64,000 nucleotides of DNA from Minisyncoccia bacterium (GTDB lineage Bacteria; Patescibacteriota; Minisyncoccia; Phycocordibacterales; Phycocordibacteraceae). This document shows positions 1-9,283 of the stretch, in pieces. The stretch spans positions 22,473 to 86,472 of the forward strand of contig JBEKII010000001.1 of NCBI GenBank assembly GCA_050011835.1. Reading direction: 5' to 3'. Each line of letters opens with the position of its first letter. Within the stretch, counting starts at the first letter, position 1. Position numbers and translations under genes: made by a program. Under the pieces are notes generated by a model. That model had not been told where the DNA came from. It worked only from the letters and a program-made list of their open reading frames with translations, and did no database searches.

Positions 1-461
1 TTTTTCAATAATCTTTTAGCACTCTGCAATCTGCTACTCATCATTGAAAGCCATTTGCTATGGCGATAGCTGTCGTTGCTATCAACATAATTGTTGTTAT
101 ACTTCCAATCTTTTGCGCCAGTGTTATAGGGCGGGTCAATATAAATGACATCTATTTTGCCTTCGTGCGTGTAATTCAAAACCGAGAGAGCGTGATAGTT
201 GTCTCCCTCAATAAGTATATTGATTGGCTTTCCCGCGCTGGTTTTAACTTCTTTTGTTTTATCTTCAATAAGAACGGGCAAATTTTCTTTGCACCACCTA
301 ACTACTTTTTCGGGTTCTTTTTCACTATCCCAAACAAGCCCATATTTCTTGCGCTTGCGAAGACGCTTGATTTCTTCAACGAGCTGGTTTTTATCCCAGT
401 CGCTATATTTTTGATTGCCCGTTTGGACGGACGATTGTAATGGTAATGATTTTTCAGACAT
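1..461 (-). CDS. DNA methyltransferase, N-terminal part (N6-adenine/N4-cytosine, Type III Mod-like). The 3' end lies beyond the window's left edge.
   Basis: Manual minus-strand translation from the ATG at 461 gives MSEKSLPLQ...YGLVWDSEKEPE...NILIEGDNYHALSVL...IDVIYIDPPYNTG..HSKWLSMM. This contains the D/NPPY catalytic motif and the canonical N-terminal layout of PF01555-type Mod methylases. The ORF stays open to position 1. Confidence 0.7.
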   Translation of the reverse strand, partial: MSEKSLPLQSSVQTGNQKYSDWDKNQLVEEIKRLRKRKKYGLVWDSEKEPEKVVRWCKENLPVLIEDKTKEVKTSAGKPINILIEGDNYHALSVLNYTHEGKIDVIYIDPPYNTGAKDWKYNNNYVDSNDSYRHSKWLSMMSSRLQSAKRLLK

Positions 462-800
462 AGATGTACGCTATGTCTGGCAGGCACTCTTTTTTGTAAG
501 AAATGCAAAAAGGGGACAGCCAGATGGTACATCCACGTCCTCGTTAGCACAGGGGTTCCGATTAGTGGCACCTGACTGCCCCCTTTTCACCCGCTAATCG
601 GATAAAAATAAGGCGTGTCCTGCACTACCAAGGACTAGCGTGGATGTACAAGAGCTATGGTAGCAGACACTGGCGCGGGTTGGAAATCAGAGATTTTGCC
701 ACACGATTAGAACCAGTGTAAAAAGAGTATTTTTGGGTTGCAAATCGTGTCTTTTTATGGTAAATTATTAGCAACATTATATGACAATTACCCTACAACA

Positions 801-2963
801 ATGGACTTATTTCAGAGTTTTTCATCAAAAGAAAATCTAAAAAAGGCATTTGCATATCTCAAAGACGAGGCAGATGAAAGTTCGTTGTCTTTAGACCCGA
901 TATGGAGACCATCAATAAGTGCCGTGGCACAGCTTGGAGATGAGTTTTTTGAAGCACTCCAAGATTATCTCCGACAGGACAAATATCAGCCCGACAAAGC
1001 TGATTTTGTTTATGCCGATAAAGACAATATGGGAGTTCGTCCAATCTGTGTTTTTTCTGTAGTGGATAGGATAGTTTTTCAGGCACTTTTAAATCCGTGG
1101 ATTTTGGGAAACATAATAGATAAAAAATTATACCGTTCGTGCTTGGGCAATAGAGTGCTTGGAAAGGAGAAATATCTCAAGCCATATAAAAAACAATGGA
1201 TTGAATTTTGCGATAAACAAGTTGAAGCATTTAACAAAAAACTTATCTGGCGTGTTGAATTTGATATACGAACCTATTATGAGGACATCCATATTGATAC
1301 CTTACTTAAAGTTCTTAAAGAGGATTTTCAAATACACGATGAACGGCTACTTACAATACTTAAAAATCAGTTAGAAGCGTGGTCAGAAAAACCTACTGGA
1401 TGCGGTATTCCGCAGGGAGCAAATGCCTCTCACCTTTTAGCTAATGCCTATCTCTATAAACTAGATACTTTTTTTGATGACCTGAAAAGCGGTGGCGACT
1501 TTGAGTATTTTCGCTATGTTGATGACATAGTAGTAATGGCAAAAAGTGCCGATAAAATAAATCATAGTGTTGCAAAAGCAGGTTTGTCTTTTCGGGAATT
1601 CAATTTAACATTCAACGATAAGACAAAAATAGGGAAACTTAAAAACACAAAGAGCATTGAAGAATTGAAGTTTTATAGTCCTTATGGACAACTCAATGAA
1701 ACATCTCAACAAAGAGTAGAAAAAATAAGCAAAAGAATACCAATAATTTTAAGAAAAATCGCTAGAGGAAGCGATGTTAAAAAAACGGATATAAGCGGAC
1801 TTAAATACTATTTAAAAGCTGAAGCTGGTCTTGGTAATTCAGAGGTACTTGATAATTTAATTGCATTAATACCGAAGAAACCATCTTTAATTTTCTTGAT
1901 TTCTCGGTATTTAAGTTTCTATCTTTCTGACATCAACATTGTTTTTAACAAGGCAGACAAAAAACTTATACGCTCAAAATATGAGAAAATTTGGAAAACA
2001 TATAACGGCAATTCGCTTACAGGATGGACTAAATTCTGGCTCTTGAAAGTTCTCTCTACTCCTTCATTTGCGAAAGACCACGAGGGTTTTCAATCAGAAC
2101 TCAATAGAATAATCGCAGACCCCGATACCAATTTTTTAAGACCATTGGCATTTTTTTATAAAGCATATACGCGAGCGCAAATAGACCCCCTTATGCCTTT
2201 AGGTTTTACCTCGGATGATATTAAGAGACACATCAGAAATGCGAAGACGCAAACAGAAAAAGCAATTTATTATTACTTTTCTGTTTACTTAAGCGGCGTT
2301 GAGGAAAATGAAATAATAAAAGAATTAGTTTACGAAGCACTACAATCAAAATCACCAGAAATTCAAACAATGGGATTATTTTTGATTAAAAATCTATACC
2401 ATTTATTTGAACCAACTCCCGCCGTAGTAGATAACAGGGGTGTTGTAACAAAATGGAATGTAAATTCGGAACGAGAAATAACTGGAGAATTGAGTAGGAT
2501 TTATTTCAAGTTCCCACCGCCCGTAAAACCAAAGGCGGAACGAGAAACAGCAACCGAAGACGATTACCTCACTTTTGAGGGCAAAATTGCAAAGGATAAA
2601 TTTGCCTCGTTTATAGGTATGTCAAAACCTCGTAAAGAAGCAAAGTATTCAAAAATTATTGCAAATAAACTCAAATATTATCCAGAAAGTGGAGACACTG
2701 AATATAAAACTGCTGTATGGCAATTCAAGGGCAAAGCCCGCGCATTTTTAACGATACTTCACGGAAATAAGAATATGAATTTTAATATTGAGGATATTAA
2801 AAAGTATTGCAATCCACTTGTTATCATACAAAGACATAAATTTAGAGACGAAAAAGACACAAATGACACCTTACGAGAAATTCGTTTTAGATTAAAAGCG
2901 AGTAAAGGCGAATTATTCCCGATTTTTAAGCAAGAAAGGGGCTGGATATGGCTTGAAAAGTAG
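801..2963 (+). CDS. Reverse transcriptase with a long (~440 aa) alpha-helical C-terminal extension. It resembles Abi/UG-class defense RTs (AbiA/AbiK-like architecture).
   Basis: RT motifs: NLKKAFAYL (motif 0-like), RPICVFSVVDRIVFQALL (motifs 1/2), GIPQGANASHLLANAYL (QGxxxS motif), YFRYVDDIVVMA (YVDD catalytic motif). The track ORF starts at 738; the ATG at 801 fits better behind a TTGCAA-N17-TAAATT promoter (~726-754). An intrinsic terminator follows at 3028-3057. Confidence 0.75.
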   Translation: MDLFQSFSSKENLKKAFAYLKDEADESSLSLDPIWRPSISAVAQLGDEFFEALQDYLRQDKYQPDKADFVYADKDNMGVRPICVFSVVDRIVFQALLNPWILGNIIDKKLYRSCLGNRVLGKEKYLKPYKKQWIEFCDKQVEAFNKKLIWRVEFDIRTYYEDIHIDTLLKVLKEDFQIHDERLLTILKNQLEAWSEKPTGCGIPQGANASHLLANAYLYKLDTFFDDLKSGGDFEYFRYVDDIVVMAKSADKINHSVAKAGLSFREFNLTFNDKTKIGKLKNTKSIEELKFYSPYGQLNETSQQRVEKISKRIPIILRKIARGSDVKKTDISGLKYYLKAEAGLGNSEVLDNLIALIPKKPSLIFLISRYLSFYLSDINIVFNKADKKLIRSKYEKIWKTYNGNSLTGWTKFWLLKVLSTPSFAKDHEGFQSELNRIIADPDTNFLRPLAFFYKAYTRAQIDPLMPLGFTSDDIKRHIRNAKTQTEKAIYYYFSVYLSGVEENEIIKELVYEALQSKSPEIQTMGLFLIKNLYHLFEPTPAVVDNRGVVTKWNVNSEREITGELSRIYFKFPPPVKPKAERETATEDDYLTFEGKIAKDKFASFIGMSKPRKEAKYSKIIANKLKYYPESGDTEYKTAVWQFKGKARAFLTILHGNKNMNFNIEDIKKYCNPLVIIQRHKFRDEKDTNDTLREIRFRLKASKGELFPIFKQERGWIWLEK

Positions 2964-3027
2964 TAAATAAAAAATTCACTTTTCTCACCTGCGTATCCGA
3001 CACAGGGCGGTAAAAGATAAGGTCAAA

Positions 3028-3057
3028 GCAGATTGCGCTTTGGCTTTTTTTGTTTGC
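3028..3057 (+). terminator. Rho-independent terminator after the RT gene
   Basis: Hairpin caaagc-agattgc-gctttg followed by gcttttttt. Confidence 0.5.
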
Positions 3058-3101
3058 CAGAGCCGCAAGGTCGTTTTAACCAATTAACTAACAAAATTAT
3101 A

Positions 3102-3401
3102 ATGACAAGAAAATTACAAAAAAGTAGTCAGCCAGAGGAATACACCTATATCCCTCTGGACGATACAGCGAATTATTTTTACTCGCACGACATTGGATTG
3201 TGCAGTTATTTGTTAGCCAAAAACTTTGAGTTGGTCGGCTTGGATAAAGCAATCAGAAACAAGGTGCTTTTCATTCTGAAAAGAGACGAAGGAATAGAAG
3301 CGGAAGTGAAGAAATACTGGGACTTCAAATCTTCAGTAGATGCTCAAACATACTTCAACCAGATTAAGCGGTGTAAAAACCAAATCTTCAGTTCGCAATA
3401 A
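3102..3401 (+). CDS. Small phage/mobile-element-associated protein (DUF5659-like pattern)
   Basis: YFYSHDIGLCSYLLAKNFELVGLDKAIRNKVLFILKRDEGIEAEVKKYW...QIKRCKNQIF. This matches the pattern [YF]xSxDLxLAsyLxxKGxELVxIxK..KxVFxF typical of small phage proteins. The family assignment is from memory. Confidence 0.4.
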   Translation: MTRKLQKSSQPEEYTYIPLDDTANYFYSHDIGLCSYLLAKNFELVGLDKAIRNKVLFILKRDEGIEAEVKKYWDFKSSVDAQTYFNQIKRCKNQIFSSQ

Positions 3402-3405
3402 ATCT

Positions 3406-3603
3406 ATGTTGTCGGATGAGCAGATAACAAAATATCAGACGCTTCACAAAAACCGCTTCGGCAATGAAATCAGCCGAGAGGAAGCGTATGAAAAAGGCGC
3501 GAAACTCATCCGACTTGTTGAGTTGATTTACAAACCGATGACCGAAAACGAGTACCAAAAATTACAGGAACGCCGCCGAGAAACTGGCGACCTGAAAACC
3601 TAA
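3406..3603 (+). CDS. Hypothetical small protein (66 aa)
   Basis: ORF starting MLSDEQITKYQTLHKNRFGNEISREEAYEKGAKLIRL, packed tightly behind the previous gene. No recognisable domain. Confidence 0.35.
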   Translation: MLSDEQITKYQTLHKNRFGNEISREEAYEKGAKLIRLVELIYKPMTENEYQKLQERRRETGDLKT

Positions 3604-3627
3604 CAAAACCTAACATTACAAAACTAT

Positions 3628-3894
3628 ATGAAATCTCTTGAAAGACGATTTAACAACATAGCCGAGAAAAATCCCAATCGGAGTTCTTATATCTGTTTTG
3701 CCGAAGCTGTGAAAGGGCAAGGTTTTAGCGAGCAAATAATTCACCGATGGTTTAACAAATTAGTTGATAAAGATGATTATGCAAAGAAAGAGAAAAAAGC
3801 AGTTTTGAAGTTTCTCGTTGGTCTTTCAAACCCCGTGAGGACAACAGGAAATGAGAGTAAATCAGCCCCACGAAGCAGACAAAATGCCAAATGA
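3628..3894 (+). CDS. Hypothetical small protein (88 aa)
   Basis: ORF in the same orientation within the element. No recognisable motif. Confidence 0.35.
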   Translation: MKSLERRFNNIAEKNPNRSSYICFAEAVKGQGFSEQIIHRWFNKLVDKDDYAKKEKKAVLKFLVGLSNPVRTTGNESKSAPRSRQNAK

Positions 3895-3948
3895 TACATA
3901 ACAGTCCTATGTAACAAAAATCTATAAAATTAACCAACATTATCCAAT

Positions 3949-6189
3949 ATGGAAACATTACAAACTATTAACATTAAAGAATATCTGACCAGAAAAGGCG
4001 TTACCTTTCGTGAGAGCGGTAAAGAAATCATCACCCAATGTCTCTTTAACGGCTGTGATAAAGACAGCAGGGGCGCGGAAGCCCATCTCTATTTTGACGC
4101 CGAGACGGGGCAATTTGAGTGCAAAAAATGTGGCGAGAAAGGCAATCTCGTAACCCTCGCCAAGCATTTTGGAGATGGCATACAAGAGATTGCCCTTAAC
4201 CCCGTAATACCCACGAGAAATCCACGAAAATCCACGAAATTTGACGCGGGGCTAGTAGAAACCTGCCATCAGGCACTTCCAGCCAATATCCGCCAATATC
4301 TCAACGCTAGAGGCATTACAGACGCTGTTATAGACGCCCACAAGCTCGGCTGGGGCAAGTTCTATGGCAAATGGTGGATTACCATACCAATACAAGATAT
4401 TTATAGGGCTTTTCAGTTTTTCAAGTTGAGGAGAGACCCCAATGCGGGAGATGAAAAAACTACTTATCCCAGAGGCATTGAAGCCCAGATTTACGGCTGG
4501 GAAACCTTAACAAATCTTAACAATTCACTCCTCATCTGCGAGGGCGAGCTGGACAGATTGGCTTTGCTTTCAAAAAACATACCCGCAATTACTTCAACGC
4601 ACGGGGCGATGACATTCAAGCAGGAGTGGTGCGGAAAGGTAGGAAAAGGTAGGAAAATCTATATCTGTTTTGACAATGATGAAGCGGGCAGGAAAGGAGC
4701 AGAGCGGGCGGCAAAAATGTTGGAAAATGTTGGAAATGAGACATACATAATCACGCTACCGCAGGAAGTTGGCGAAGGTGGCGACATAACCGATTACCTC
4801 GTGAAGCTCAACGGCAACCCCGATGACTTGTTTGGTAAATATGCAAAAGAGTATCCAGAAAAAATGGATACCTCGCAATTCCAGCCACTCTCTCCGCAGG
4901 ATTTGATTGAGATACTTGGATTGACGATAAAACAGGACGAGGAGAATAAAATCGCAACCTTCCTATGTGAGCTATCGGCATATACCGAAAACGCACAATT
5001 CAACATCAGCTATAACGCCCCATCATCCACTGGCAAAAGTTACATCCCTTTGGAGATTTCAAATCTATTTCCAAGTGAAGATGTAATGAAACTTGGTAAC
5101 TGCTCTCCCACGGCTTTTTTTCACGAGCAGGGCGAGTACAACAAAGACAAAAACATCATAACCGTAGACCTGTCCAGAAAAATCATTATCTTTTTAGACC
5201 AACCACACACCGCTCTCTTGGAGCGATTGCGGTCATTGTTGTCGCACGATGAAAAAGAAATGCACTCCAAAATTACCGACAAAAATCAGAAGGGCGGAAA
5301 CCGAACTAAAACGGTAATTATAAAAGGTTTCCCCTCGGTAATTTTCTGCACGGCAGGGCTGACGATTAACGAGCAGGAAGCCACCCGATTTTTACTGTTA
5401 AGCCCAGAAGTCAATCGGGAGAAAATCAGGCAAGGGATTTTGGAGAGTATTAAAAAAGAAGCAGACGCCGAGAACTATAGAAGTTGGCTTGATGAGAACC
5501 CAGAGCGAAATCTACTCAAGGAGAGAATACGAGCAATAAAACTAGAGGGCATCCGAGAAATTAAAATTGCGAACCATCAAATAGTCATTGATAAATTCTT
5601 TAGTGAAAACAAAGTACCTAAACCAAGAAATCAGCGAGACATTAAACGCCTTGCCTCGCTCATCAAATCTTTTGCCCTCGTTAATCTCTGGTGGCGAGAG
5701 AAAAGCGGCACAACAATTACCGCCAACGAAGATGATATTGAACAGGCATTTAAGATTTGGAATGCTATCTCTGTAAGCCAAGAACATAACCTGCCGCCCT
5801 ATATCTACAATCTCTACCAAGAAGTCATCTTAACGGCGTGGAATGACAAGAACGACAACAGGAATGAGAGCATTGTAGCGGTAACGGGATTGCTCGGCGT
5901 ATCACGCCAAGAATTGCTCCAGAAGCATTTTGAGGTCTATGGGCGAATGTTGGACACCAACCAGCTACGACAACAAATCCTGCCAATGCTTGAGACGGCG
6001 GGGTTAATTGAGCAGGAGGCAGACCCTAACGATAAACGAAAAATGCTGATTTTCCCTGCCGCACTTCCCACTAAACCTTCTGACCAGAGGAATAGCGAGA
6101 ACGAGGGTGTGGTGAGTATCAGTGAAGAAAACAATAGTGAAATGAGCAGTGGGGTAACTCAAGATTTAGAAAGTTTCCTGACGCCATAA
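3949..6189 (+). CDS. Primase-helicase-type replication initiator: DnaG-like CHC2 zinc finger + TOPRIM primase domain fused to a C-terminal P-loop NTPase (P4 alpha / PICI Pri-Rep-like).
   Basis: Zinc finger CLFNGC...FECKKCGEKG. TOPRIM signatures LLICEGELDRLAL and YICFDNDEAGRKGAERAA. Walker A YNAPSSTGKS. Walker B-like IIIFLDQ. Long helical C-terminus. Confidence 0.7.
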   Translation: METLQTINIKEYLTRKGVTFRESGKEIITQCLFNGCDKDSRGAEAHLYFDAETGQFECKKCGEKGNLVTLAKHFGDGIQEIALNPVIPTRNPRKSTKFDAGLVETCHQALPANIRQYLNARGITDAVIDAHKLGWGKFYGKWWITIPIQDIYRAFQFFKLRRDPNAGDEKTTYPRGIEAQIYGWETLTNLNNSLLICEGELDRLALLSKNIPAITSTHGAMTFKQEWCGKVGKGRKIYICFDNDEAGRKGAERAAKMLENVGNETYIITLPQEVGEGGDITDYLVKLNGNPDDLFGKYAKEYPEKMDTSQFQPLSPQDLIEILGLTIKQDEENKIATFLCELSAYTENAQFNISYNAPSSTGKSYIPLEISNLFPSEDVMKLGNCSPTAFFHEQGEYNKDKNIITVDLSRKIIIFLDQPHTALLERLRSLLSHDEKEMHSKITDKNQKGGNRTKTVIIKGFPSVIFCTAGLTINEQEATRFLLLSPEVNREKIRQGILESIKKEADAENYRSWLDENPERNLLKERIRAIKLEGIREIKIANHQIVIDKFFSENKVPKPRNQRDIKRLASLIKSFALVNLWWREKSGTTITANEDDIEQAFKIWNAISVSQEHNLPPYIYNLYQEVILTAWNDKNDNRNESIVAVTGLLGVSRQELLQKHFEVYGRMLDTNQLRQQILPMLETAGLIEQEADPNDKRKMLIFPAALPTKPSDQRNSENEGVVSISEENNSEMSSGVTQDLESFLTP

Positions 6190-6240
6190 AAAGGGTCATC
6201 GCTAACTGATAAACAGTATAAAAACAGTAATAACAAAACT

Positions 6241-6786
6241 ATGAACGAAATATCAAAAAAACAATTAGAGGCAAATCGTGAGAACGCAAAGCTCGGCGGC
6301 GTAAAGACCGATGAGGGTAAAGCTGTAAGTAAATATAATGCTCTCAAACACGGAATTTTGAGCAAAGAGGTGTTACTTGAAGGAGAGGATGAAAAAACAC
6401 TTATTGAAATCGGGAAAAAACTACGAGCAGAATTAGAGCCGCAAACAGAGCTTGAATTAGTGTTGGTTGATAGGATAACTGCCAATGTTTGGAGATTAAG
6501 ACGGGTAATGCAGATAGAACGAGAAATGATTGAAGATGACCGCAAAGACAGTTTCAGTAAAGGTGGATTGAAGACACTTGGAGAGGCGTTTAGTTATGAC
6601 TCTGCCAATTACGATACTTACAGTAAACTTATTCGTTACGAAGCAAGCATTGAACGCGGTATCTATAAAGCATTGCACGAACTACAACGACTGCAGGCGG
6701 TGAGGAATGGTGAAAATGTGCCAGTGCCAGTAGTTGTAGATATGGATATATCTGGTGAGAAAATAAATGGGTTCGTTTCGCAATAA
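6241..6786 (+). CDS. Hypothetical protein of the mobile element (181 aa)
   Basis: ORF with segment ELELVLVDRITANVWRLRR. Function unknown. Confidence 0.4.
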   Translation: MNEISKKQLEANRENAKLGGVKTDEGKAVSKYNALKHGILSKEVLLEGEDEKTLIEIGKKLRAELEPQTELELVLVDRITANVWRLRRVMQIEREMIEDDRKDSFSKGGLKTLGEAFSYDSANYDTYSKLIRYEASIERGIYKALHELQRLQAVRNGENVPVPVVVDMDISGEKINGFVSQ

Positions 6787-6841
6787 TAACTTGATTAAAC
6801 TGGTTAATCTCAAATAATTTCGGCAATAGAAAAAATAAAAT

Positions 6842-7456
6842 ATGCGCGGCGGATGGAACTCTACAGGTAAAACAGAAGCGGACAGCGTAAAGAAAATATC
6901 TGTACGCTTTCTCAATGAGCGCGGCTTTTTCTCTGGATGGCAATCTGGAACGATGACTTGGACGAGCGGACGGTCGGGAACGAAAAGTAGTGTCAGTATT
7001 GAGGTCTCAACGATGAACGAGGAGAAGTATCTTCGTATCTACTATACGCAAACAAACCGTGATACGGACGAGGAAAAGGACTTTGACTACAAAATCCCTC
7101 TGCTCTCCACTCCGTGTCGCTATGGCGGTAAAAGGTATTGGTTTCAGTGTCCGTGGTACAAAAACGGGCAATACTGCGGACGCAGAGTAGGTACTTTATA
7201 CAAAAATGGCGATTACTTCGCGTGCCGCCACTGCTACAATCTCACCTATGCAAGCCGCAATGCGAGTGCTCGGTACAAAGGGTTCGTAAGCTGTCCAGAC
7301 CTTGATGAACAGGAAGCGAAGGTGAAGCGGATGTATTACGCTGGAAAGCCAACTAGAAAATACCGAAAACTACTGAAAATGGAGAGGCGTTTTGAAATGG
7401 GCGTTATCCGAGCCGCAGGTGGATTAGGCATACTTGGCAAGAAATATGGTGTATAA
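6842..7456 (+). CDS. Hypothetical zinc-ribbon protein (204 aa)
   Basis: Cys cluster CRYGGKRYWFQCPWYKNGQYCGRRVG...FACRHCYNLTY. Function unknown. Confidence 0.4.
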   Translation: MRGGWNSTGKTEADSVKKISVRFLNERGFFSGWQSGTMTWTSGRSGTKSSVSIEVSTMNEEKYLRIYYTQTNRDTDEEKDFDYKIPLLSTPCRYGGKRYWFQCPWYKNGQYCGRRVGTLYKNGDYFACRHCYNLTYASRNASARYKGFVSCPDLDEQEAKVKRMYYAGKPTRKYRKLLKMERRFEMGVIRAAGGLGILGKKYGV

Positions 7457-7612
7457 TGAACTTGTTGAACCGATGAAAGCAAATATGCGCAAGGTATTTT
7501 TATTGCAAAAAGGTAAGATAGTAGCCCGAGAGGGGCGGTCTGCCGCTATCTTGCCAATCCTTGCGATTGCTCGTAGTCGGTTCAACACAGACCGTCCCTT
7601 TCGGGTTTTTGT

Positions 7613-9223
7613 ATGAATAAAGATACCAATAAAATCAAATACTTTATTTACGCCCGAAAGTCATCGGAGAGCGAAGACCGACAGGTGCAATCTATTGATG
7701 ACCAAATAAATCGGCTCAAAAAGTTTGCCAGCGATTTTAATCTGGATATTAAAAAGACCTATACCGAGGCGAAATCGGCAAAGAAACCGAATAATCGCCC
7801 TATTTTTGATGAGATGATGGAGCGGATTGAAAAGGGCGAAGCGGACGGAATTTTATGTTGGCAGATAAATCGTCTCTCCCGTAATCCAATTGATAGCGGC
7901 AAATTAAGTTGGTTCCTGCAACGAGGAATACTTAAATCAATCCAGACCATAGACCGTCAATATCTACCAGAAGACAATGTATTGATTTTCAGTGTTGAAA
8001 GCGGTGTAGCCAATCAATACATTTTGGATTTAAGCAAGAATACCAAACGGGGTATGCTCTCCAAGCTTGAAAAGGGTTGGCAAACGGGAATAGCACCGCT
8101 TGGCTATCTCAACGATAAAGAAAATAAAATTATCATCAATGACCCAGAACGATTTAACCTTATCCGCAAAATGTGGGATTTAATGCTTACAGGCAGTTAC
8201 ACACCACCAAAGATTTTGGATATTGCGAATAAGGAGTGGGGTTTTCGGACAAGGAAGTTTAAACGAATGGGTGGCAATGAATTATCCCGAAGCGGTATCT
8301 ATAAGATTTTTACGAGTTTGTTTTACGCGGGGATAATTGAAAATGCAGGGGTGCAATACGAAGGACAGCACGAAAAAATGATTACGCTTGAAGAATATGA
8401 CCGAGTGCAAATGCTTATTGGCAGAAAAGGTAAACCAAGACCAAAACAACACAAGTTTGCTTTCACTGGGTCTATACGGTGTGGTGTATGTGGCTGTCTT
8501 TATACGGCTGAAACAAAGAAAAGAATACTAAAATCAGGAGAAATACACGAGCATACTTATTATCATTGCACGAGGAAAACAACAAAGATTAAGTGCAATC
8601 AACGGAAAAATATCCCAGAAGGCGATTTGGAAATAGCCATTGAGAAGGAGATAGAAAAATACACCATCCTGCCAGAGTTCTTGCAGTGGGCATTAGAGGG
8701 ATTAAATAAAAAGAACGATACCGAAATTGAGGACAGAACGAAGGTTTACGAAATGCGACACAAAAATTTGGTAGAAACCCAAAAGGAGTTGGATGAGCTT
8801 ACTAAAATGAGATACCGCCAGTTGATTGATGACGAAACCTTTATCAAAGAGAAGAACACGCTCCAGAGCAAAATCACCCAATTCAAAGAAAATCTGCGAG
8901 AAACAGAAACGCGAGCCGAGAAATGGCTTGAACTTACTGAAAAGACATTTGCATTTGCCGCTTATGCACGCAAAGCATTTACTACTGCAAAAGGAAAAGC
9001 AGGGTTAGAACTGAAGAAAGAAATCTTATTAGCACTCGGTAAAACGCCGATAATTAAAGACCAGAAGCTGATTATTGAACCGAATGAGTGGTTTGCAGAG
9101 ATACAAAAAAGCTATCCTGCGTTGGAGAGAGAATACTTAAGGTTAGAACCGAAAAATCCCCTTGTAAATCAAGGAGATTTTCCGATTTCTGACCCTATAT
9201 TCCGAACCGTGCTCCGCGGGTAG
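7613..9223 (+). CDS. Large serine recombinase (integrase) of the element
   Basis: Resolvase-type catalytic N-terminus YFIYARKSSESEDRQVQSIDDQ. Recombinase domain and C-terminal zinc ribbon CGVCGCLYTAE...HCTRK. The last codons overlap the 3' end of tRNA-Asn. Confidence 0.8.
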   Translation: MNKDTNKIKYFIYARKSSESEDRQVQSIDDQINRLKKFASDFNLDIKKTYTEAKSAKKPNNRPIFDEMMERIEKGEADGILCWQINRLSRNPIDSGKLSWFLQRGILKSIQTIDRQYLPEDNVLIFSVESGVANQYILDLSKNTKRGMLSKLEKGWQTGIAPLGYLNDKENKIIINDPERFNLIRKMWDLMLTGSYTPPKILDIANKEWGFRTRKFKRMGGNELSRSGIYKIFTSLFYAGIIENAGVQYEGQHEKMITLEEYDRVQMLIGRKGKPRPKQHKFAFTGSIRCGVCGCLYTAETKKRILKSGEIHEHTYYHCTRKTTKIKCNQRKNIPEGDLEIAIEKEIEKYTILPEFLQWALEGLNKKNDTEIEDRTKVYEMRHKNLVETQKELDELTKMRYRQLIDDETFIKEKNTLQSKITQFKENLRETETRAEKWLELTEKTFAFAAYARKAFTTAKGKAGLELKKEILLALGKTPIIKDQKLIIEPNEWFAEIQKSYPALEREYLRLEPKNPLVNQGDFPISDPIFRTVLRG

Positions 9224-9283
9224 GATTCGAACCTACAACCAACTCCTTAACAGGGAGCTGCTCTACCATTGAGCTACCGCGGA
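9212..9283 (-). tRNA. tRNA-Asn (anticodon GTT)
   Basis: Reverse complement TCCGCGGTAGCTCAATGGTAGAGCAGCTCCCTGTTAAGGAGTTGGTTGTAGGTTCGAATCCTACCCGCGGAG folds as a cloverleaf. Acceptor TCCGCGG/CCGCGGA, anticodon loop CTGTTAA, T-loop TTCGAAT. No encoded CCA. Confidence 0.85.

Follow-up and report, generated by a model that had tools for sequence, protein, structure and literature searches.

The first 9,283 nucleotides of the analysed stretch (64,000 nt from a Minisyncoccia bacterium, hereafter the window) comprise the right two-thirds of a mobile DNA element of about 13.5 kb that was inserted by a large serine recombinase (LSR, a serine integrase) at the 3' end of a tRNA-Asn gene, followed by that gene. 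The element belongs to a widespread family of Patescibacteria (CPR), small-genome bacteria whose mobile elements are hardly described, and our literature search found no paper describing this family. It carries a primase fused to a P-loop ATPase, predicted anti-phage genes and a tRNA gene. The observation in the earlier note, an AT-rich region with a serine recombinase gene ending inside tRNA-Asn, a DnaG-like primase fused to a P-loop NTPase, a defense-type reverse transcriptase (RT) and a Mod-like methyltransferase running off the window, is confirmed, as all of these features are present. Its interpretation is only partly supported: an inserted, site-specific element with its own replication protein and defense cargo, ending at tRNA-Asn and with its left end outside the window, is upheld, whereas its phage-satellite (PICI-like) label and its description of the tRNA overlap as the classic arrangement for tRNA-targeting islands are not.

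Gene content and boundaries of the element

Extension of the contig to the left (extended contig, L001; other L numbers denote related loci or contigs) yielded the whole element of about 13,546 bp, which runs from attL at L001 1716, 4,336 nt left of window position 1, to attR at window 9210–9217. Both sites carry the 8-bp core TGCTCCGC. From left to right, the part outside the window contains the P' arm, a tRNA-Arg(UCU), a 252-nt RNA-like unit, two small ORFs and Res (727 aa), and the complete Mod gene (570 aa) lies at L001 4801–6513. The features within the window are as follows.

1–461 (−): N-terminal 153 codons of the type III restriction-modification (R-M) methyltransferase Mod, running off the window
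462–745 (no strand): GC-rich structured non-coding region between the divergent Mod and RT genes
801–2963 (+): UG19-like (class 1 UG/Abi) RT, 720 aa, a cargo gene in a variable slot
3033–3401 (+): DUF5659 protein, first gene of the conserved backbone
3406–3603 (+): p65, a conserved 65-aa backbone protein
3628–3894 (+): p88, a small, poorly conserved ORF
3949–6189 (+): predicted replication protein, 746 aa, a DnaG/T7-gp4-type primase (zinc-binding domain plus Toprim RNA-polymerase domain) fused to a P-loop/AAA+-like ATPase with a helical C-terminal domain
6092–6157 (+): two copies, 42 nt apart, of a 24-bp family repeat, candidate iterons or regulator sites
6241–6786 (+): p181, a conserved backbone protein
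6842–7456 (+): p204, a four-cysteine zinc-ribbon protein
7613–9223 (+): LSR, 536 aa
9153–9209 (+): P arm of attR, inside the LSR 3' end
9210–9217 (no strand): attR core TGCTCCGC, the 3' end of tRNA-Asn
9211–9283 (−): intact host tRNA-Asn(GTT) with no encoded CCA, the integration target (B' arm)

The tRNA-Asn was called by Aragorn and by Rfam (74.6 bits). The LSR ORF ends 12–13 nt inside its 3' end, and the last four codons and stop are read from the antisense strand of the tRNA. The LSR contains the Pfam Resolvase (positions 2–143 of 145, E = 2.9e-19), Recombinase and Zn_ribbon_recom domains and the motif YARKSSESEDRQ of the resolvase catalytic domain with its serine nucleophile, and it matches a PHROG integrase profile at 7.5e-70. 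By sequence it also matches PDB entries of the TP901-1 integrase (catalytic domain) and the A118 integrase (C-terminal domain, 4kis, residues 210–455). The P arm is a variant unrelated to the family consensus tail and is shared with another element, P0040. The GC content is 40.3% for window 1–9209 and 49.9% for the rest, and the lowest host window of 9.2 kb has 46.2%. The earlier note gave 33–38% against 50–55%; the break is real but is not sharp at every 500-nt step. In addition, AGA accounts for 34% of Arg codons in the element, as compared with 6% in the host.

The primase is supported by Pfam Toprim_2, a PHROGs primase/helicase profile, and sequence matches to DnaG and T7 gp4 in the PDB. 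An AF2 model (pLDDT 72) matches Aquifex primase (3.7e-14), Twinkle and T7 gp4, and MCM/Mg-chelatase ATPases, and the Walker A motif APSSTGKS is invariant in 26 homologues. The 24-bp repeat, ATAGTGA-N8-GTGGGGTAA, lies in the 3' end of the primase gene, and three inverted copies lie at the left end (L001 2242, 2415 and 2601). Two matches were found in the window against 0.17 expected, and five in L001 against 0.05 expected, with the same layout across the family.

Among the small proteins, DUF5659 (Pfam) is found in 20 of the 31 loci compared by tblastn and was also called in L048–L050 and L054. p65 shows 54–91% identity in 22 loci, always between DUF5659 and the primase, whereas p88 matched only L024 and gave no family hits. 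p181 shows 29–71% identity in 9 loci and has no Pfam, PHROGs, PADLOC or PDB hit. p204, always found just upstream of the LSR, has 5,981 representative homologues in which C92, C103, C128 and C131 are invariant; it has no Pfam or PDB match, and a single-sequence AF2 model was unusable (pLDDT 41). It is a candidate accessory or directionality factor by inference only. Recombination directionality factors have no common fold, and none was identified here, p204 and p181 being candidates by position alone.

Mod and Res are adjacent and co-oriented, with Res directly downstream. Mod matches Pfam N6_N4_Mtase and PADLOC MTase_III (4.6e-39), with a readable IDPPY motif, and Res has ResIII/DEAD domains. 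The spacer at 462–745 occupies the slot that holds an HTH_17 gene plus LOOT RNA in most relatives; LOOT sits in this slot in 9 of the 13 relatives' loci scanned with Rfam. The spacer itself gave no Rfam hit even at E ≤ 10, which rules out LOOT. Its fold z-score is −3.6 on the minus strand and −2.5 on the plus strand, and it is partly alignable to the equivalent spacer of L049. It is not an RT-associated template RNA, as RT homologues usually lie 66 nt downstream of an HTH_17 gene without it, and its similarity to the GC-rich unit at the left end of the element is at chance level.

Attachment sites and polymorphism among relatives

All 27 related genome loci are Patescibacteria contigs or bins. 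They share the backbone DUF5659-p65-primase-p181-p204-LSR, allowing for the per-gene counts given above, at Asn, Gln, His or Trp tRNAs, with the LSR always abutting the tRNA 3' end and an LSR identity of 46–88%. In eight relatives, the cores of attL and attR are 6–10 bp and co-vary with the target tRNA: Asn elements use TGGCTCCG, Gln elements GCTGG/GCTGC, and His elements TGGGGT. In the element studied here, attL (L001 1716–1723) and attR share only the 8-bp core. This core alone could occur by chance, and its weight comes from its register with the family-conserved P' arm that follows attL. A search of L001 for a long direct repeat of the tRNA-Asn 3' end, with a 25-nt probe and up to 3 mismatches, found only the tRNA itself.

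The earlier note had held that its reading would fail if no att repeat existed and gene content at this tRNA were the same in all relatives; the repeat exists, and gene content differs between contigs that are 100% identical in the host flank. Contigs L036, L037 and L038 are 100% identical to the window from 9210 (L038 from 9209) rightwards and are unrelated to the left. Three different left contexts diverge exactly at 9209/9210. A search for an empty attB in the same species, by looking up the HPF protein, gave two other occupied or different contexts and no empty site. A metagenome scan with a 24-mer from the left region found only the 252-nt unit in unrelated contexts.

An attP-type junction is seen directly in a relative. 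L046 carries host-attL-element, and its LSR tail runs into the P' arm, whereas the 100% identical element in L045 and L047 runs into the tRNA instead. Of the 120 best LSR clusters, about 13 read into a P' arm and about 100 read into a tRNA. These junctions could also reflect tandem copies, and neither an attP junction nor an empty attB was recovered for this particular element or host. Contigs of the family cluster at 13–14.5 kb, which could reflect assembly breaks at att cores rather than free circles; no circular contig was demonstrated, as L041 has host flanks on both sides and L055 runs into host-like genes. L002 was considered as a clean attP, but its junction, CACGGGCTCC joined to CCCAATAATACTCAC, is not the family P' arm. 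The P' arm shows coding constraint, with 252 synonymous against 295 non-synonymous codon differences, including AGG<->CGA and TTG<->CTA changes.

Both L001 and L019, the latter in a different host and targeting tRNA-His, have a tRNA-Arg(tct) right after the P' arm. The two copies are 84% identical to each other and 74% identical to the L019 host copy; L019 therefore holds duplicate Arg(tct) and Phe genes.

Interpretation and alternative explanations

Our analysis supports with high confidence that window 1–9209 is the right-hand 68% of an integrative, probably self-replicating element. The sequence data directly establish the order of genes, the position of the LSR gene at the right end with its 3' end serving as the P arm, the location at the very 3' end of a tRNA-Asn that stays intact, the 8-bp core shared by attL and attR, and the P' arm after attL. 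They also indicate, on the basis of the attP-type junctions in relatives, that in the free form the LSR ORF continues about 25–30 codons across attP into the P' arm, so that integration replaces a conserved C-terminal tail by a few tRNA-antisense codons. By comparison, the following points are inferences: excision of this copy, deduced from relatives; replication of the excised circle by the primase-ATPase, perhaps from the 24-bp repeats; protection of host and element against phages by the R-M system and the RT; the use of tRNA-Arg(UCU) for the AGA-rich genes of the element; and transfer between cells by something not encoded in the element, in which no transfer mechanism is evident.

A phage satellite of the PICI type, induced and packaged by a helper phage, appears unlikely. 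The size of about 13.5 kb and the order of integrase, primase-replication protein and accessory genes resemble PICIs, element-borne tRNAs are typical of viruses, and several small ORFs without assigned function (p65, p88, p181, p204, sm57 and sm59) could hide interference or packaging genes. However, PHROGs, Pfam and NCBIfam searches found no terminase, capsid, portal, head-size-remodelling or packaging-interference gene among the ORFs, an absence that is not absolute given these small ORFs. Single-protein scans of IMG/VR found no close relative of the LSR or the primase, and an alignment-based scan found only generic phage Toprim domains at ≤40% identity; this argues against packaging in virions only indirectly. 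No helper phage is known. Furthermore, the integrase is a serine recombinase rather than the tyrosine type of PICIs, and a constant backbone with defense cargo fits SCC- or tycheposon-like cargo carriers.

It is equally unlikely that the true left end lies at about L001 2218–2241, which would make tRNA-Arg, the 252-nt unit and the P' arm at L001 1716–1799 host DNA plus a relic attL of an older, decayed element, the locus a tandem accretion, and the present element about 13.0 kb without tRNA cargo. Tandem or accreted arrangements do exist in the family (L022 has a second LSR and two P' arms, and L055 has an LSR followed by a P' arm and then defense genes), the GC content rises to about 50% left of L001 2230, and the 252-nt unit occurs elsewhere with unrelated flanks. 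We had initially placed the left end at this GC break, but rejected this after the block taken for the tail of a second LSR type proved to be the P' arm. No P' arm lies at L001 2218–2241, although every other element has one at its left end, and the core at 1716 is exactly the unusual tRNA-Asn end of this host, without the usual extra G. The same P' arm–tRNA-Arg junction and the duplicated tRNAs in L019, the high GC expected for RNA genes, and the AGA bias that gives the tRNA a role in the element also argue against it. Least likely is a fixed island with an inactive or domesticated recombinase. This copy lacks the HTH_17/LOOT module, has a divergent P arm and LSR tail, and could be impaired, with no attP or attB junction found for it. 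Nevertheless, all backbone ORFs are intact and full length, the LSR is 89% identical to its closest relatives, composition and codon use have not converged on those of the host, the site is polymorphic among contigs with identical flanks, and the variant tail shared with P0040 indicates a lineage rather than decay.

More tentatively, these elements may define a large, undescribed clade of tRNA-3'-end-specific serine integrases that spreads across Patescibacteria classes and in which the integrase gene is split by its own attP. The free form would make an LSR with the conserved tail of about 25–30 aa (LRIVNDVRTIFERQNEYIYIPDL...), and the integrated form a truncated enzyme ending in tRNA-antisense codons, a swap that could act as a built-in switch of recombination direction or of enzyme stability. 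The family (LSR, primase-ATPase, 24-bp repeats and LOOT RNA) would then be a natural integrating and replicating vector system for CPR bacteria.

Comparison with known systems and distribution

The closest analogues are SCCmec and tycheposons. As in SCCmec, insertion involves a large serine recombinase at the extreme 3' end of a conserved housekeeping gene that stays functional, a primase and helicase are encoded (PMC7581432; here, a predicted primase-ATPase), the variable cargo includes R-M systems, and the element has no transfer genes of its own. NCBIfam CcrB, CcrA and CcrC are among the LSR hits, although only at 40–67 bits against cut-offs of 700–900. The element differs from SCCmec in that its target is a tRNA gene rather than rlmH, that it has one LSR rather than a CcrA/CcrB pair, that the LSR ORF spans attP, and that the hosts are Patescibacteria. 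Its DnaG-type primase is fused to the ATPase, while SCCmec reportedly encodes a primase-helicase pair (PMC7581432). Tycheposons of Prochlorococcus (10.1101/2020.12.28.424599) are analogous in architecture: they occur in a streamlined-genome host, integrate site-specifically at tRNA genes, and carry a primase/helicase replication module plus a variable cargo module, and 27 of 937 use a large serine recombinase. Tycheposons mostly use tyrosine recombinases and are flanked by partial tRNA repeats, and the cargo here is defense genes rather than nutrient-uptake genes.

With classical tRNA-targeting islands and prophages (Islander type, PMC4383910), the element shares the tRNA 3' end as target, the adjacent integrase gene, the intact tRNA and the foreign composition. 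Those elements, however, use tyrosine integrases and regenerate the tRNA from a long duplicated fragment, and no Phage_integrase hit was found in any ORF here. Serine integrases at tRNA genes were called unreported in PMC7192596 (14 of 297 cases, flagged as needing proof), and tyrosine integrases were thought to own this niche almost entirely. The present family shows that serine integrases can specialise on tRNA 3' ends and retarget among Asn, Gln, His and Trp. In integration-dependent immunity of mycobacteriophages and lambda sib retroregulation, attP lies inside or next to a regulatory or integrase transcript, and the integrated and free forms therefore make different products; here the integrase coding sequence itself is split by attP, with any functional consequence remaining hypothetical.

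The family is abundant. The 120 best LSR clusters are all 78–89% identical, and more than 4,300 LSR clusters and 2,300 primase clusters reach E ≤ 1e-10. Source names place it in Curtissbacteria, Shapirobacteria, Doudnabacteria, Moranbacteria, Nomurabacteria, Uhrbacteria, Saccharibacteria-labelled bins and Minisyncoccia. It appears to be a main vehicle for R-M systems, RTs and other defense genes in these small genomes, and it links the orphan LOOT RNA to a defined genetic context. Its well-defined attP/attB pairs and compact predicted replication module are useful raw material for genetic tools in organisms that are hard to manipulate.

The RT resembles the UG19 (class 1 UG/Abi) defense-associated RTs (PMC9226505), whose defense activity is itself only a prediction, and lies next to an R-M system on a mobile element. 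Besides Pfam RVT_1, its best PADLOC hit is RT_UG19 (E = 8.9e-51, 171.6 bits), ahead of UG21 at 126 bits, but the match covers only profile positions 3–386 of 562 and is followed by a C-terminal extension of about 300 aa. Only 44 homologues were found, those that carry a name mostly Patescibacteria, and the slot of the RT holds other genes in L002, L044 and L045. The real start of the gene is probably ATG 801 rather than TTG 738; an identical NCBI protein starts at this ATG.

Gene content and extent of the element

The first 9.2 kb of the window has a GC content of 40.3%, as compared with 49.9% for the remaining 54.7 kb, and no host 9.2-kb window falls below 46.2%. The tRNA at the boundary and the genes to its left were assigned as follows.

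9211–9283 (–), tRNA-Asn(gtt)
7613–9223 (+), a 536-aa large serine recombinase (LSR) with Resolvase, Recombinase and Zn_ribbon_recom domains, whose last 12–13 nt lie inside the 3' end of the tRNA
Upstream of the LSR (+), a 204-aa four-cysteine protein (p204) and a 181-aa protein (p181)
Further upstream (+), a 746-aa Toprim protein
Further upstream (+), three small ORFs, one of them DUF5659
Further upstream (+), a reverse transcriptase (RT)
Leftmost, the N-terminus of a type III Mod methyltransferase, which runs leftwards off the window

The observation made in the earlier note is therefore correct, and only its GC figures (roughly 33–38% to the left of the tRNA and 50–55% to the right) were too extreme.

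The primase protein was used to locate a 277-kb contig carrying the same region (JGI 3300037993 Ga0427919_0000068), and NCBI records the identical protein from a Minisyncoccia bacterium. The extended sequence taken from this contig, L001, reaches 6,052 nt further to the left and adds the rest of Mod, Res (727 aa), two small ORFs, a GC-rich non-coding stretch, tRNA-Arg(tct), a 55-aa membrane protein gene and a histidine kinase gene.

Family, att sites and mobility

The LSR has more than 4,300 homologue clusters at E<=1e-10. The best 120 of these are 78–89% identical, and those that carry a name are mostly from Patescibacteria. A scan of species-representative genomes gave 27 loci, some of which come from metagenome bins with unreliable taxonomic labels. 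Comparison of the loci by tblastn and Aragorn reveals a constant backbone, DUF5659-p65-primase-p181-p204-LSR, with variable cargo to its left, including type III or type I restriction-modification (R-M) systems, an RT or other genes, and an HTH_17 gene. In every locus the LSR 3' end abuts the 3' end of an antisense tRNA, which is Asn in 10 loci, Gln in 7, His in 3 and Trp in 1. In four further loci Aragorn calls no tRNA because the gene is interrupted. Group I introns were detected in two of them (L006 11651–11952 and L017 11654–11895), as recently described for Patescibacteria tRNA-Asn (PMC13011429), whereas loci L008 and L022 have the same tRNA-like acceptor and T-arm followed by divergent sequence. 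The conserved LSR tail ...SVRAHW stops exactly at the CCA of the tRNA.

About 13 of the best 120 LSR clusters do not read into a tRNA, but into ...W-LRIVNDVRTIFERQNEYIYIPDL... or a related motif. The same block lies at the left end of integrated elements, directly before the first copy of a 24-bp family repeat, and is therefore the P' arm. In L001 the P' arm lies at 1724–1799 and is preceded by TGCTCCGC (1716–1723), the same 8-mer that forms the tRNA-Asn 3' end at window 9210–9217. In eight relatives the attL and attR cores are 6–10 bp and co-vary with the target: TGGCTCCG for Asn, GCTGG/GCTGC for Gln and TGGGGT for His. Delimited by these cores, rather than by a resolved crossover dinucleotide, the element is thus about 13,546 bp (L001 1716–15261), and the window holds its right 68%. 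An attP-type junction is seen directly for a relative: contig L046 contains host-attL-element, and its LSR tail continues into the P' arm. By comparison, the 100% identical element in contigs L045 and L047 continues into the tRNA, and those two contigs start exactly at the attL core.

At the site itself, contigs from other samples are 100% identical to the window from 9210 (or 9209) rightwards for 1.45–1.65 kb, but carry unrelated DNA to the left. In L036 and L037 (1–472) the same tRNA-Asn end is joined to an HTH_17 (excisionase-like) gene plus a terminator, and in L038 (1–22) to a third sequence, suggesting that the site is a hotspot for several different elements. Another contig, L034, carries the same element as the window, and no empty site was found. 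Tandem accretion or recombination between different elements at one tRNA is also suggested by two related loci. L022 has a second, 37%-identical LSR (894–2590) followed by a P' arm, then a further P' arm (the two arms at 2497–2571 and 3577–3650) and a short type-1 element. In L055 an LSR (203–1870) reads into a P'-type tail and is followed by PD-(D/E)XK, OLD-like Toprim and rve genes. In addition, the LSR tail of the 13.35-kb contig L002 (11570–11813) ends ...VRAHGLPQ* and is followed by neither a tRNA nor the usual P' arm (…GGGCTCC|CCCAATAATACTCACTCC…), an as yet unexplained junction.

The P' arm shows coding constraint, with 252 synonymous against 295 non-synonymous pairwise codon differences, including Arg AGG<->CGA and Leu TTG<->CTA. 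The free-form LSR is therefore about 25–30 aa longer, and integration swaps its C-terminus, which may regulate direction or stability, although this is inference. The LSR of the window has a variant P arm and tail (...LVNQGDFPISDPIFRTVLRG), which is shared with another element, P0040. The variant in the window goes with a tRNA-Asn gene that lacks an encoded CCA.

Predicted replication protein, cargo and candidate RNAs

Sequence and fold searches of the Toprim protein identify a DnaG/T7-gp4-type zinc-binding and RNA-polymerase domain, followed by a P-loop ATPase with an invariant Walker A motif, APSSTGKS. Full-length matches are to Twinkle and T7 gp4, whereas the ATPase matches are to MCM and Mg-chelatase. 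In the related element L049 the same slot holds a Toprim-AAA_25 protein. The 24-bp repeat, ATAGTGA-N8-GTGGGGTAA, is conserved across the family, with two tandem copies in the primase 3' end and 2–3 inverted copies at the 3' ends of the leftmost genes. Five copies were found here in two inverted clusters, against 0.05 expected by chance: two in the primase 3' end (window 6092–6115 and 6134–6157) and three at the left end (L001 2242–2265, 2415–2438 and 2601–2624). The copies sit in different reading frames, so the signal acts at the DNA or RNA level, and they are candidate iterons or regulator sites.

Mod and Res form a type III R-M system. The RT is UG19-like, UG19 being a class 1 UG/Abi group predicted, not shown, to act in defence (PMC9226505), and its clade has only 44 members. 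In a related element, L049, a diversity-generating-retroelement-like pair (a 348-aa RT plus bAvd; 1541–2942) lies to the left of the Res/Mod cargo, whether inside or outside the element. The tRNA-Arg(UCU) gene directly follows the P' arm in both L001 and the related locus L019, and the two copies resemble each other (84%) more than the L019 host copy (74%). Furthermore, AGA makes up 34% of Arg codons in the element against 6% in neighbouring host genes. The excision, replication and transfer of the element, the role of the tail swap and the defence functions of the cargo are all inferred.

The orphan Rfam family LOOT RNA (RF03000) scores 66–97 bits in 9 of the 13 related elements' loci scanned with Rfam (L002 2765–2884, L008 4253–4374, L010 6104–6234, L018 2571–2685, L019 6017–6144, L022 5035–5162, L024 6232–6361, L041 4712–4838 and L044 6168–6287, all on the minus strand relative to the LSR). 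It always lies between an HTH_17 gene and the start of the R-M methyltransferase gene, on the methyltransferase strand. This gives LOOT a defined genetic context, as a leader or sRNA of R-M operons on Patescibacteria LSR elements. By comparison, the element in the window lacks LOOT, and HTH_17 plus LOOT are replaced by a GC-rich spacer between Mod and the RT (window 462–745). This spacer folds unusually stably (z = –3.6 on the minus strand), contains interleaved long-range complementarities (508–526/569–587 and 528–539/641–652), is partly alignable to the equivalent spacer of L049 (9714–10000) and has no Rfam match. A 252-nt GC-rich unit inside the left part of the element (L001 1965–2217, window –4087 to –3835) recurs at 88–94% identity in two unrelated metagenome contigs with unrelated flanks (L039 2060–2309 and L040 608–860). 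It ends in a minus-strand terminator hairpin whose loop varies, and also has no Rfam match. A 1-nt indel argues against coding, and the unit is probably an undescribed small RNA or the end of a mobile module.

Comparison with known elements

The interpretation in the earlier note, an integrative element described both as the classic arrangement for tRNA-targeting islands and as matching phage satellites and PICI-like elements, is only partly supported. No capsid, terminase or packaging gene was found by Pfam, PHROGs and NCBIfam searches, no close relative is present in IMG/VR, and neither a tyrosine integrase nor a long tRNA repeat is present. The PICI/satellite and classic tRNA island labels are therefore not supported.

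Mageeney et al. state that serine integrases were not known to target tRNA genes, and found only 14 of 297 cases, which they flagged as needing proof (PMC7192596). Tycheposons include a 3% minority with LSRs, and SCCmec shares the logic of an LSR plus primase/helicase inserted at the 3' end of a housekeeping gene (PMC7581432). Our literature searches for a description of this CPR family found nothing. We rate the mechanism class as known, and the target class, the split integrase gene, the host range and the family as new. The gene list on record for the JGI contigs has no gene for the LSR ORF (L001 13665–15275, and contigs L033 and L034). We infer that this may be because the ORF overlaps the tRNA, and this integrase family may therefore be under-annotated in IMG-derived data.
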